Assembly (NCBI GenBank): GCA_036867785.1
Contig: CP145414.1
Span: forward strand, 186,001 to 250,000
Source of the DNA: Plasmodiophora brassicae
Taxonomy: Eukaryota
DNA: 64,000 nucleotides
Direction: 5' to 3'
Part shown: piece after piece, positions 12,001 to 15,000 of the stretch
Position numbering within the stretch: the first letter of the stretch is position 1
How the letters are laid out: each line of letters starts with the position of its first letter
Program-made: the position numbers

Positions 12001-15000
12001 GGCGGCCGTTACCGCAATGGATCCTGCTATACAAGACATTCACGCTGCGATAGCTAGATACGGTGCATCAGTATTGCGTTTCTCCGTACGATCCCGCAGA
12101 GATTGGTCTGTACTCAAACAGAGTACGAGAGCGCTCTCTATATGGGGCGACCCTCCATCCGCCATACCTGTTCGCATTGGCGATCGTGTCCAATGCACCC
12201 TGAATAAGGGTTTCACCTGGTATGGCGAGCAGTTACAGCCTGCCACCAATTGCTGATCTCTGATAGTCATGGGCAATCATCCACATGATATTGACTAAAT
12301 AAATACACATCTTTGGTGTGTTTTCATTCGAAGGGTGGCCTCCGGCTCCGACTCTGACACTCCCCGCCGAAAGAAGTTCCTGGAAATAGGGCACAACGAG
12401 GACATCGACAAACTGGCCAAACGGGCGGCCAAGAAAGGTCTATGTGGAGTAGAACACACTCCATTCCTACCCTACAAACTCCATTTGAGACGCATGGCAG
12501 CCGACCGATTAGAAGATCATCGAAAGAACAACATTAAAGAAAGCAAATGGAGTGACTATCCAACCGACAACGATATCGAGACGATGCAGAGAACATAGCA
12601 TACGACAGCAGAAACATCCATATCCACCCCCTGCTGAAACGCGCCCACTCGGGACACTGCGGCTCTCGGCAGCACCTCTTCAACAGTAGCCAAAACTTGG
12701 CCGGAGAGTCATCCCAATGCCGGCACTGCGGGAACGCAACGGACACCATTGAGAATCAACTTCTGCACTGCACCGCATTGCGCGACAAATTACAACAAGA
12801 ACGAGATGAATAAGCGCGGTTATGGAAAAACTCCTTCACAGAGGCCCTCTGGAAAAACGAAGGCGAGATGACGAACATTCTCAATTCTGCAAAGGCCAAA
12901 AAGTGCCTATACATCTAACAAAACGCCAAGATCACCAATTACACCCAGAACAAAGAACAAATCCGTACTGCTATGCGACCAACGAGATATCGCGGTGCAG
13001 ATTACTCTGCCCCGCCAAGGCCACGAGGCCTAAATGTTTTGGGTGCCCGACAGCCCGGTAAGACGTGTCGTTTAGGAGTTGTCTTAGGGGACCACTTGAT
13101 CAGGTTGGAAGGCGAAGGGCGCCTGTAAATTAGGCGGCCACCTCCCACAGGGGGGCGGATGTCGTCAGTAGTGTAGACAGAACAACCACAATGATAAAAT
13201 TCTACGAACCTTTGGGGTGCTCAAGGAGCCCTCAGACTCGCCCTGGAGTCGCCAATCTGCGAGATCCCAGCACAAAGGTGACAGGCCGGCACTGCCAGGC
13301 CGGAAGAAGCTGACGTTCTGGAAGCTGGTCCTACGGTCCTCGGACCCGAGACCGAGACGCCTGCATGAAAAGCGCGAAACACAAACAAAGATCAACTAAA
13401 CTAAGAGCATCTCCACCGCGGAGCCGTTTTCGGTATCGTTATCGTCAGATCTGACGATTTTGCTTGCAGGCAGTCACACCAACCGAACCAGGATTCTTTA
13501 TCGTTACCTGTCAGATTTAGTGAATTCGTCACCTCCGGCACAGATCTGATTCAGATCTGTGACGATTCTGTTGTCTATTGATCGGTCGAGACGATGATGG
13601 GGCTTGTCGAGGCAAGCGTTCGTACTGGTCCTCCTAGTTCTGTTACCGATTCGTCTGGTTCTGGCGACGTTCGTCCTCCTTCAGCTGCTGCATCTGCCGT
13701 GTCAACGCCCGTGCGGCGTGGCAAAAGGGAAGGGGCGAAGAATTTTACTCCAGGGGAGGACCTGATGATCGCCAAAGCGTACGCGTCAATAACTACAGAC
13801 GCGGCCGTTGGAGTCGACCAGGATGGCGAGACGTATTACCAGCGAATCGCCGCTGCATTCCACGAACTTGTCGATGGATCTCCAGCTTACGTGTGCGATC
13901 GCTCCTGGGAAAGTATCCGCAACAGGTGGCTCCACGTTGCAAAAGGACTTGCTGAAGTTCGTCGGTTGCCTGAACAAAGCGTTCGCGGAGGATCACTCGG
14001 GATGGTCATATGATGATTACTTCGACATGGCGAAGAAGTATTATCTGGCGATAACCAACCGCGAGTTCAACCGCAACTGCTTGTGGTTGGAAGTCAAGCG
14101 GCTCCCGAAGTTCGCCGCCGACGTCAACCAAATGTCCCCATCCAGCAAGCGCGCACTCTCACTGGATTCTGCAGACGGTCAACAGCCAGACGTAGATGGC
14201 GACGCCGTCGATGGGGTTGCTGATCAGAATTCTCCTGACATCCCGAAACTGGCGCTTGCCCAACGCCCCAGTATTGGCAAGAAGAAAGCTAAGAAGATTA
14301 AGTTCGAGAAAGCACAAACGAACGAAGCATCTGTGTCGATGCTCGGCCAGTGGATGCAGCAGATGGCCAAGGCCCAGGAAGAACGCCTGTCTGTCGCGCG
14401 CGAGAAAACACGAATCGCGCGTAATAAGTTTCTCACGTCGTTGTTCACGGAAGACGACCAAGAGCGGTCCGAGTTCATTCGTCTCCAGCGTGAGCAAGCA
14501 CTTCTGGAGGCGCGCCTTGAAGTGGCTAAGAAGCGAAACGAACTCGCTCAATTGGAGGAACGCCATTAATACAGCACGTTCGTTTCCACTCGACAACAAA
14601 TGTATACTGTTTATTGGACTGTTACTTGAAGAATGAAAAACGCGGGCGCCGCTGGGAATCGAACCCAGGGCCAACGGTTGAACGTACCGCTGCTGTACCA
14701 CTCAGCTACGGCGCCTGAAGTCCGACTGGCGTGAGGATTGGATGTATGTAATTCCTGACACGCCCCCTCAATCCGTAGCCAGGTGTGACGATGGTGTCTG
14801 TCCTGGGATCTACTACGGAAGAGGGCCCATTGGCGCCACGCATTTCTGTATGGCTATGTATAGCGCATACGACTGTTAATCTGAGAAGGACAATAATGAA
14901 GTGGATGTATTACGTACGGCGTGTGCGGCGGACGTTACAGTGGCGACGTAGTCGCCGACGGTGTAACGGTTGCCAACGCCGGCGGGCACGGAGTCGCGGA

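Follow-up and report, generated by a model that had tools for sequence, protein, structure and literature searches.

Results and discussion

A cloverleaf whose stems all pair and whose anticodon loop looks unsuited to decoding lies inside a Harbinger transposon, between two convergent ORFs, and the locus raises the question of how such a tRNA-shaped Pol III unit came to reside there. A sequence-only reading had proposed that Harbinger carries it as a functional tRNA mimic, i.e., as a barrier, a block to read-through, or a decoy. Our analysis of the window (the whole 64-kb stretch of DNA that was analyzed) points to a different origin. We estimate a probability of roughly 70% that the tRNA-like sequence serves as Pol III promoter and R module in the LTR of a non-coding mini retrotransposon of the Helenus/TRIMp3 kind, which is nested in the Harbinger element.

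The Harbinger element

The transposon extends over 3.2 kb (13405–16617), has 20-nt TIRs and is flanked by a TAA duplication. It comprises the following features.

13402–13404: left target-site duplication (TSD), TAA; TAA at both flanks
13405–13424, plus strand: left TIR, GAGCATCTCCACCGCGGAGC; agrees with the inverted right end at 19 of its first 20 bases
13582–14569, plus strand: ORF1, Myb-like, in two overlapping frames (13582–14013 and 13793–14569); ORF calls
15087–16633, minus strand: DDE transposase, in ORF pieces 15087–15866 and 16001–16633; Pfam
16598–16617, minus strand: right TIR; inverted match to the left end
16618–16620: right TSD, TAA; TAA at both flanks

Judged from its sequence, the element is a member of PIF/Harbinger, to which the transposase, the TIRs and the 3-bp TWA duplication fit, with the Myb-like ORF1 as a lead only. 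The transposase matched Plant_tran (PF04827, E 1.6e-72) and DDE_Tnp_4 (E 1.6e-15) in Pfam, and a 330-aa protein labeled by NCBI as a DDE Tnp4 domain-containing protein of Plasmodiophora brassicae is 100% identical to it. The N-terminal part of ORF1 is nearest to a cluster named "Myb-like domain-containing protein" (score 0.96), which is to be read as a lead only, and the comparison of ORF1 with Pfam gave nothing above the cut-off, the NAM-associated family remaining below threshold (E 0.0018, 19.6 bits versus 27.7). When relatives of the transposase were sought in a metagenome scan, 34 pattern matches came up, none of which was confirmed. The host element resembles PIF/Harbinger in its DDE_Tnp_4/Plant_tran transposase, its putatively Myb-like second ORF, its short TIRs and its TAA TSD, but differs in that the tRNA-like sequence lies outside the family's own structure and belongs to a nested retroelement in the window copy.

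An intact cloverleaf unlike a decoding tRNA

The tRNA-like sequence is indeed located between the convergent Harbinger ORFs, as had been noticed from the sequence alone, with the stop of the plus-strand ORF at 14569 and that of the minus-strand DDE transposase at 15087.

14644–14715, minus strand: tRNA-like sequence, a cloverleaf containing both Pol III boxes (A and B), anticodon loop ACGUUCA, discriminator base C; ARAGORN, Rfam, fold and sequence
14636–14640, minus strand: T5 run of the Pol III terminator type, 3 nt past the tRNA-like sequence; sequence

It was the sole tRNA gene called by ARAGORN in the 64-kb window (type Asn(gtt)), and the single Rfam match at or above the gathering score in the window was the tRNA model at the same position and strand, which scored 57.6 bits (threshold 29; E 8e-10) and was covered from position 1 to 71 of 71. 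All stems of the 72-nt sequence are paired (acceptor 7 bp, D 4 bp, anticodon 5 bp including one G-U, T 5 bp). Box A reads TAGCTGAGTGG and box B reads GGTTCGATTCC, in line with the general consensus motifs, and on the minus strand the 3' end is followed by GCG and then TTTTT (14643–14636). The cloverleaf, boxes and terminator described in the sequence-only reading were hence all recovered, and its account of the loop and discriminator agrees with the sequence as well: the anticodon loop ACGUUCA consists of A32, C33, G34 U35 U36, C37 and A38, and the discriminator base is C (C73). Decoding tRNA-Asn possesses U33, a purine at position 37 and an isotype-specific discriminator, and C33, C37 and C73, which the tRNA-like sequence has, are not among its features. 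The view of a tRNA-derived, Pol III-type module that does not look like a decoding tRNA is upheld.

The thermodynamic fold was only moderately better than that of shuffled sequences (z −2.13; 4 of 200 shuffles folded equally well), and the minimum-energy form is not the cloverleaf and retains the acceptor and anticodon stems. With up to three mismatches allowed, the window contains the tRNA-like sequence a single time (0 of 100 shuffles), and a metagenome scan for it with the loop left free found 0 loci. An Rfam scan of positions 13300–16700 at E values up to 1 revealed no ribozyme or further RNA family; besides the tRNA itself, it returned a mascRNA match that covers the tRNA bases and stays below threshold, and one match at chance level.

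A nested 432-bp insert

The tRNA-like sequence is part of a 432-bp insert (14634–15065), which on the plus strand starts with TG (14634–14635), ends with CA (15064–15065) and has the 5-bp duplication AAGAA on both sides. Read on the minus strand, the insert consists of a 184-nt LTR, a 15-nt candidate PBS, a 97-nt spacer, a polypurine tract (PPT) and a 127-nt LTR, here called LTR'.

15066–15070 and 14629–14633: 5-bp TSD, AAGAA on the plus strand and TTCTT in the element sense; identical 5-mers
14882–15065, minus strand: 184-nt Copia-type LTR (T), TGTCGAAC...CTTCTCA, on the 5' side of the nested element; repeat comparisons
14867–14881, minus strand: candidate PBS, 15 nt, GATTAACAGTCGTAT; loop motif, common to other copies of the 184-nt LTR
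14770–14866, minus strand: non-coding internal spacer, 97 nt; sequence
14761–14769, minus strand: PPT, GAGGGGGCG, directly upstream of LTR'; 14-mer match to the Copia junction
14634–14760, minus strand: LTR', 127 nt, carrying the tRNA-like sequence; start from the PPT+TGTCA 14-mer, end from CA and TSD

A TG...CA pair with a 5-bp TSD at the length of the insert was found solely here among 63,558 positions, and such structures with lengths of 100–1000 numbered 379 among 57.2 million position-length pairs. The sequence-only reading had seen no TSD; a target-site duplication is present, around the 432-bp unit rather than around the 72-mer. In its sense direction, LTR' starts with TGTCAGG and is composed of 45 nt, the 72-nt tRNA-like sequence (72 of the 127 nt) and GCGTTTTTCA. 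The longest stop-to-stop frame of the insert over all six frames is 95 codons, and an insert this small would not be expected to encode a Pfam domain. The complement of the candidate PBS contains CUGUUAA between a pairable GA and UC, as in an Asn(GUU)-type anticodon stem-loop, and going by this loop motif alone, the candidate PBS would be assigned to the anticodon stem-loop of an Asn-type tRNA.

These structures bear on two of the alternatives. A tRNA-derived SINE head moved by a LINE, which the tRNA-derived Pol III promoter and the hints of multiple copies given below could suggest, is barely credible, because the terminator 3 nt past the tRNA-like sequence leaves no SINE body or tail downstream, and the TG...CA ends, the PPT and the fixed 5-bp TSD are marks of an integrase-mediated insertion. 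The earlier judgment that the unit is not a SINE is thus borne out. With SINE2 elements it would share a tRNA-derived internal Pol III promoter that drives a non-autonomous retroelement, whereas SINEs depend on LINEs for their mobility, continue past the tRNA head into a body and a tail, and are devoid of LTR, PBS and PPT.

The second alternative is a genuine or recently decayed nuclear tRNA gene beside an LTR insertion, placed there by chance or by targeting of Pol III genes. Some LTR elements, such as Ty1 and Ty3, do insert beside tRNA genes, and the perfect stems, the consensus A and B boxes and the T5 run 3 nt downstream agree with this explanation. We nevertheless regard it as highly unlikely, since C33, C37 and C73 are not features of decoding tRNA-Asn, and since the tRNA-like sequence lies inside, not beside, the TSD-bounded unit, 45 nt after the PPT+TGTCA junction. 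Moreover, the entire unit is missing from another Harbinger copy, and the several-fold higher summed contig depth over the unit in sequencing run X2, relative to neighboring single-copy contigs, is a hint in the same direction.

The copy lacking the unit is represented by one X2 contig (n = 1; depth 260.7; shorter side 87 letters), which joins 14633 to 15075 and bypasses the segment 14634–15065. The limits of this joint equal those of the insert, give or take a TACG repeat, and the skipped copy may carry other letters there. From the insert structure and this joint it follows, as far as the data reach, that the tRNA-like sequence is absent from another copy of the Harbinger family and occurs as part of an independent unit. 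The proposal that Harbinger carries the tRNA-like sequence as its cargo is not supported.

Harbinger's own functional tRNA mimic, be it a TFIIIC barrier, a block to convergent read-through or a decoy RNA, is accordingly scarcely probable. The location, precisely in the gap where the 3' ends of the two ORFs converge, would suit it, and A and B boxes bind TFIIIC wherever they are located. On the other hand, the tRNA-like sequence arrived with a 432-bp retroelement bearing its own TSD, one contig of another family copy is without the segment, and the contigs include ordinary internal-deletion derivatives of Harbinger (joints 13708–16309 and 13969–15980) in which conservation of the spacer between the ORFs was not evident. 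The tRNA-like sequence may have been exapted for TFIIIC binding, and nothing was seen in support of such a role.

A candidate Copia-type partner

The window also contains a 5'-truncated Copia element, whose pol matched RVT_2 with an E value of 2.4e-40.

8426–10688, plus strand: 5'-truncated Copia with RVT_2 pol, PPT at 10489–10497 and T-type 3' LTR from 10498 to ~10688; profile match and repeats

The 14-mer GAGGGGGCGTGTCA, comprising the PPT and TGTCA, occurs exactly twice in the window, at 14756–14769 (minus strand) and at 10489–10502 (plus strand), the latter directly after the RVT_2 pol at the pol/LTR junction. By arithmetic, about 5e-4 chance recurrences of a given 14-mer are expected in 128 kb. 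The T LTR at 14882–15065 is 81% alike over 188 nt to 10498–10679, which adjoins the Copia PPT; with 17185–17275 it has 99% likeness over 91 nt. There are four T copies in the window, and in all four the likeness ends right after ...TCA or ...TTA. In contigs of other T copies the next 15–18 nt are common and the sequences then diverge, the likeness ending at 14867 (X1 and X2) or 14864 (X17). This agreement up to the end of the PBS, followed by unlike sequence, fits an LTR with a shared PBS in front of differing internal regions. Contigs of other Copia copies are alike up to 10505 or 10506. A Copia of this type is the likely kind of autonomous partner for the mini-element.

The window copy of the mini-element is atypical in that the LTR on its 5' side is that of the Copia partner itself and its two LTRs are unlike. 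The likeness between the 184-nt T LTR and LTR' was not significant (score 12; shuffle mean 10.4, maximum 22), nor was that between the tRNA-bearing segment and the T repeat (scores 12 and 16 versus shuffle maxima of 19 and 17). Likewise, the spacer could not be matched significantly with the final part of the Copia interior, as 124 of 500 shuffles scored equally high.

Two further interpretations of this region were set aside. The 99%-alike inverted pair 14880–14970 / 17185–17275 had been considered as Harbinger TIRs with an AAT duplication; this is excluded by the true TIRs and TAA TSD at 13405 and 16617, by the linkage of ORF1 and transposase in the deletion-derivative contigs, and by the nature of the repeat, which is the LTR after the Copia PPT and has many other copies. 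A continuation of a gypsy integrase (stop at 17271) into the minus-strand stretch left of 14880 was based on a motif seen by eye only.

A canonical form with two LTR' copies is suggested by an X17 contig of 278 nt, which has 0 differences over 14634–14884, with overhangs of 13 and 14 nt, and stops 3 nt inside T. Its length exceeds by 30 nt the 248 nt that run from the PBS through LTR', as expected of a cyclic path at k=31, which we take to be the setting of the assembly. Such a length fits either LTR'-PBS-spacer-PPT-LTR' or tandem copies, and it is thus the length of the contig, rather than its letters, that points to a canonical two-LTR or tandem form. What is said here of the mini-element as a family would extend from one copy that is readable letter by letter.

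Summed contig depth, which was recorded in addition, does not measure copy number or expression, and the RNA label of X17 is a guess. Over the unit in X2 it was several times that of neighboring single-copy contigs, a hint and not a copy number. The contig depths hint at several copies of the unit, and the ratio of unit to T LTR depth was higher in X17 than in the DNA runs.

A further explanation for the unlike LTRs is that the whole 432 bp is a solo LTR of a larger, unseen family, whose LTR acquired an older nested PBS-spacer-PPT-tRNA-like-LTR fragment and propagated it. This would account for the TG...CA ends and the 5-bp TSD around the entire unit, and it would explain the two unlike halves without an unusual reverse-transcription event. 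Solo LTRs with 5-bp TSDs are also common for such families, according to the Helenus survey (Kojima 2024, PMC10886601). We consider this explanation unlikely, because the four T copies in the window stop at one point, ...TCA, and because other T copies in three runs share 15–18 further bases only, which argues for T being a complete LTR by itself. The 278-nt contig of X17, ending 3 nt inside T and with a length that fits a 248-nt cycle, speaks against it as well.

Comparison with known mini retrotransposons

The preferred reading as a mini retrotransposon draws on the likeness to Helenus (TRIMp3), i.e., mini terminal-repeat retrotransposons with tRNA-derived sequence in their LTRs, a type of element that was not described before 2024 (Kojima 2024, Biology 13:119, PMC10886601). 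The A and B boxes of the Helenus tRNA-like sequence are conserved, it is mostly non-functional as a tRNA, and it serves as a Pol III promoter, a role that is unvalidated for Helenus generally (PMC10886601). Fungal and plant families have 5-bp TSDs, the PBS of fungal families pairs with the anticodon loop of a tRNA and is shared with Copia, and in one plant family the LTR measures 120 bp and the interior 85 bp (PMC10886601). The hosts given are fungi, animals and one plant, the anticodon-loop primers given are Tyr, Ile, Asp and iMet, and Helenus was proposed to have originated through insertion of a SINE into a TRIM LTR (PMC10886601).

The insert matches this description in several respects. 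In its short LTR of ~120–130 nt, a short upstream stretch is followed by a tRNA-like sequence with conserved A and B boxes and then by a T run, and CA closes the repeat; a PPT precedes the 3' LTR; the interior is short and non-coding; and the TSD is 5 bp long, as in the fungal and plant families. The candidate PBS would be complementary to an anticodon loop and shared with Copia, as in the rust-fungus families, the tRNA-like sequence does not look functional as a tRNA, and the unit is, with 432 bp, shorter than 1000 bp. In contrast to the hosts and primers in that account, the host here is a rhizarian, Plasmodiophora brassicae (NCBI label), and the primer would be tRNA-Asn. A further difference is the Copia-type LTR that replaces the 5' tRNA-like LTR in the window copy. 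Compared by eye, the Selaginella consensus of Helenus showed no likeness beyond the tRNA-like part. A literature search of partial coverage found no report of Helenus/TRIMp3 in Plasmodiophora or Rhizaria.

A related arrangement is known from the Cassandra TRIMs of plants, which, as reportedly described by Kalendar et al. in 2008, carry a 5S rRNA-derived Pol III unit in each LTR. As in the insert, a small-RNA gene with internal Pol III promoter and terminator is located within the LTR of a non-autonomous retrotransposon, and transcription presumably begins within the 5' LTR and stops within the 3' LTR. Cassandra differs in its module, which is 5S-derived and not tRNA-derived, in its greater length (565–860 bp) and in being plant-specific. 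A link to an autonomous partner is noted as lacking for Cassandra in Kojima 2024 (PMC10886601), whereas a candidate Copia partner is visible in the window.

Proposed life cycle and origin of the window copy

By analogy with Cassandra and Helenus, the following scheme can be proposed. In a canonical two-LTR copy, Pol III would start at +1 of the tRNA-like sequence in the 5' LTR, pass the first T run, cross the PBS, the spacer, the PPT and the 45-nt U3, and terminate once it reaches the T run in the 3' LTR, so that the tRNA-like sequence and the T run would together form R. Reverse transcriptase and integrase encoded by Copia would copy and insert the mini-element in trans, with, as the putative primer, a tRNA-Asn 5' fragment whose 3' end lies directly behind the anticodon loop. 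Selection would then act on transposition and the two promoter boxes (A and B) rather than on decoding, and this would account for C33, C37 and C73. One copy of the mini-element would have inserted into the stretch that separates the convergent Harbinger ORFs, giving rise to the 5-bp duplication.

For the two unlike LTRs of the window copy, we prefer a strand transfer during reverse transcription. Copia plus-strand strong-stop DNA may have annealed, via the shared PBS, to the minus strand of the mini-element within one particle, yielding a hetero-LTR copy; we give this about one chance in three. Similarly tentative, and somewhat doubtful as a whole, is the wider proposition that the insert, which comes from a rhizarian plant parasite, represents the first element of the TRIMp3/Helenus type from beyond the fungi, animals and plants, primed by a 5' fragment of tRNA-Asn, with the window copy being a natural hetero-LTR provirus formed by plus-strand transfer between elements in a single virus-like particle.

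Implications

A Pol III promoter module that resides in the LTR of a retrotransposon is expected to look like the sequence found here, with a cloverleaf that is intact and an anticodon loop that is scrambled, so that the apparent oddity disappears. Units of this kind inflate tRNA gene counts, as documented for rust fungi in the Helenus survey (Kojima 2024, PMC10886601). The presence of a Copia LTR and a mini-element LTR in one copy, with shared PBS and PPT, is an unusually direct pointer to the autonomous partner. If the proposed strand transfer is true, the hetero-LTR copy would be a fossil record of co-packaging and direct evidence of the mobilizing Copia family. In the compact genome of the clubroot agent, the locus represents a repeat island with recent nested insertions of Harbinger, Copia, gypsy and the mini-element. 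If a census of the family confirms these findings, the range of TRIMp3 would extend to Rhizaria, and tRNA-Asn would be added to the tRNAs used for anticodon-loop priming.

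The tRNA-like sequence is separate from its Harbinger host

The sole tRNA-like gene in the 64-kb window, at 14644–14715 on the minus strand, was assigned to tRNA-Asn(gtt) by ARAGORN, and the Rfam tRNA model covered it end to end (57.6 bits, threshold 29, E = 8e-10). Every pair of its four stems is formed, and box A (TAGCTGAGTGG) and box B (GGTTCGATTCC) agree with the consensus motifs. The 7-nt anticodon loop is ACGUUCA, giving C33 and C37, the discriminator is C, and GCG followed by TTTTT lies directly 3′. ARAGORN, Rfam and the sequence thus agree with the sequence-only reading on the 72-nt length, paired stems, boxes, loop, discriminator and T5 run. 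No further copy was found in the window when up to three mismatches were allowed. Because the fold energy only modestly beats that of shuffled sequences (z = −2.13; 4/200 shuffles fold equally well) and the minimum-energy form differs from the cloverleaf, it is the covariance model, not the energy, that supports a tRNA shape.

As also described earlier, the tRNA-like sequence lies between convergent ORFs inside a Harbinger element, which spans 3213 bp. The true ends of this element are 13405 and 16617; its inverted 20-base ends agree at 19/20 positions and TAA flanks each end.

Open reading frames of the Harbinger element
15087–15866, minus strand: transposase (Plant_tran, E = 1.6e-72; also DDE_Tnp_4)
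13582–14569, plus strand: second ORF (ORF1; sub-threshold Pfam match only)

NCBI lists an identical protein of 330 aa from Plasmodiophora brassicae under the label DDE Tnp4, and the N-terminal part of the second ORF is nearest to a Myb-like cluster in a protein atlas (0.96; a lead only). In contigs from public sequencing runs, internal deletions bring ORF1 sequence next to transposase sequence (for example 13708 to 16309 in runs X2 and X17, and 13969 to 15980 in X2), as expected of one DNA-transposon family. Other Harbinger copies in X17 and X2 contigs lack 13751–13792 (42 nt) and 13899–14171 (273 nt) of ORF1 (region 13572–14550); these gaps look like deletions rather than introns, since their ends are not GT..AG. 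The element sits in sequence rich in the motif CGTTATATAAC (16621–17184), and at 17135/17136 three runs (X1, X2 and X17) have 34 letters that the window lacks.

The segment 14634–15065 (432 bp) starts with TG, ends with CA and is flanked on both sides by the 5-mer AAGAA. This combination at a length of 432 bp occurred at 1 of 63,558 positions and is unique in the whole window; over all lengths of 100–1000 it was found in 379 of 57.2 million position-length pairs. Independently of the target site duplication (TSD), one X2 contig (depth 260.7, shorter side 87 letters) connects 14633 to 15075, and this joint has the limits of the insert once a TACG repeat at its right-hand side is taken into account. 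The joint is marked ‘between: not known’, so that the copy behind it may carry other letters there, but it is without the 14634–15065 segment. Judged from these boundaries, the tRNA-like segment is not Harbinger sequence. The proposal of a Harbinger-borne tRNA mimic was not borne out, as the segment belongs to its own TG...CA unit with a 5-bp TSD and is missing from the copy behind the X2 contig.

The insert shares a polypurine tract and a candidate primer-binding site with Copia elements

Anatomy of the nested insert, as read from the sequence
15065 to 14882, minus strand: Copia-type long terminal repeat (LTR) T, 184 nt, TGTCGAAC...CTTCTCA
14881 to 14867, minus strand: candidate primer-binding site (PBS), GATTAACAGTCGTAT
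14866 to 14770, minus strand: spacer, 97 nt
14769 to 14761, minus strand: polypurine tract (PPT), GAGGGGGCG
14760 to 14634, minus strand: tRNA-bearing LTR′, 127 nt, consisting of TGTCAGG... (45 nt), the 72-nt tRNA-like sequence and GCGTTTTTCA

T was read as an LTR because a Copia pol fragment on the plus strand (RVT_2, E = 2.4e-40) ends in GGAGGGGGCG, with a sequence 81% alike to T (10498–10679) immediately behind it, and because in all four window copies (10498, 11309–11504, 14882 and 17185) likeness stops right after ...TCA or ...TTA. The window contains two copies, and no more, of the 14-mer GAGGGGGCGTGTCA, which comprises the PPT and the LTR start: one lies at the Copia junction, the other just before LTR′. 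Contigs of other T copies remain alike for 15–18 bases past the LTR CA and then differ (loose ends: 14867 in both X1 and X2, 14864 in X17), as expected of a common PBS with differing internal regions. The complement of the 15-base candidate PBS contains CUGUUAA between pairable GA and UC, which we take to be the canonical tRNA-Asn(GUU) anticodon stem-loop, ending near position 40.

The copy at 11309–11504 is a diverged T-type LTR in minus sense. Summed X2 contig depth in its bin (11335–11601) is ~90x that of neighbouring single-copy contigs, which, depth not being copy number, suggests that no repeat in the region is more abundant than this LTR subfamily. A gypsy-type pol (17271–19271, minus strand; RVT_1, with an integrase-like tail ending ...AVAEF) directly adjoins a 5′-truncated T fragment at 17185–17273 (plus strand), which is 99% alike to the T at 14882. 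This fragment and T at 14882 form an inverted pair imitating long terminal inverted repeats around the transposase.

Origin of the two unlike LTRs

Normal reverse transcription yields two identical LTRs. The window copy has one Copia-type and one tRNA-type LTR within a single 5-bp TSD around the whole unit. A 278-nt X17 contig covers 14634–14884 with 0 differences and has 13 and 14 further letters without a counterpart in the window. Its match takes in just the last 3 nt of T, and TCA is the ending of both LTR types. The stretch that begins with the PBS and includes all of LTR′ measures 248 nt, and 248 + 30 = 278, as for a cyclic path in a graph with k=31, presumably the value used for the public-run contigs. 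From this length we infer the signature of LTR′-PBS-spacer-PPT-LTR′ or of tandem copies. Summed contig depths are not copy numbers; they suggest that the unit is present several times and T far more often.

This contig pattern speaks against the improbable alternative of a solo LTR 432 bp long, from a family not seen here, into which an older fragment had been taken up, as does the single end point shared by all T copies. We tentatively prefer an inter-element plus-strand transfer, in which Copia plus-strand strong-stop DNA would have annealed, inside one particle, to the minus strand of the mini-element via the common PBS. Inter-molecular plus-strand transfer is rare in retroviruses.

Surrounding sequence

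Positions 1–45000 form an island of nested mobile elements (G+C ~50–58%).

Further mobile elements in the island
5979–7922 and 29524–33723: gypsy elements
8426–10688: Copia element
20936–22453: DDE_3 transposase

Host genes occupy 46000–64000 (G+C 59–73%), including a MED14-like gene at about 51445–56239. An intronless 948-codon frame (48069–50915, plus strand; local G+C about 70–73%) encodes a PPR protein with an E motif and a DYW deaminase domain (DYW_deaminase, E = 5.3e-26); its best non-self relative among a large collection of proteins reaches just 33% identity. It is a putative RNA-editing factor of the DYW type, here in a parasite of the Rhizaria, and may reflect organelle C-to-U editing or gene transfer.

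A probable Helenus-type mini-retrotransposon

We consider it probable (about 0.7) that a mini-retrotransposon lies nested in Harbinger and that the tRNA-like sequence is a Pol III module of the Helenus type within its LTR. Helenus elements (TRIMp3) are tRNA-bearing TRIMs described by Kojima 2024 (PMC10886601). The insert resembles them in several respects: the LTR is short and has a brief upstream segment ahead of a tRNA-like sequence whose A and B boxes are conserved, then a T run and CA; the core is short and non-coding and lies between a PBS (a candidate one in the insert) and a PPT; and TSDs are 5 bp long, in Helenus in fungal and plant families. In rust fungi the Helenus PBS is complementary to a tRNA anticodon loop and common to Copia elements, as proposed for the insert, and Helenus tRNA-like sequences mostly fail as tRNAs. 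The sole plant family given there has an LTR of 120 bp and a core of 85 bp (PMC10886601). Inspected by eye, the printed consensus of this family follows the layout of the 127-nt LTR′ but does not resemble it beyond the tRNA-like part.

By analogy with Helenus and with Cassandra, plant TRIMs with a Pol III unit in the LTR, Pol III would start at the tRNA-like sequence in the 5′ LTR, pass through the first T run and end at that of the 3′ LTR, making the tRNA-like sequence both promoter and R. Copia proteins would reverse-transcribe and integrate the element RNA in trans via the common PBS, PPT and LTR tips. C33, C37 and C73 would be tolerated because decoding ability would be under no selection; the perfect stems are those of one young copy.

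The Helenus hosts listed are fungi, six animal phyla and Selaginella (PMC10886601), and a literature search of partial coverage found no report of Helenus/TRIMp3 in Plasmodiophora or Rhizaria. The element would be a further representative of a group known since 2024, in a host lineage from which none appears to have been reported; its putative primer type, tRNA-Asn, is possibly new, and the window copy has an unusual chimeric form.
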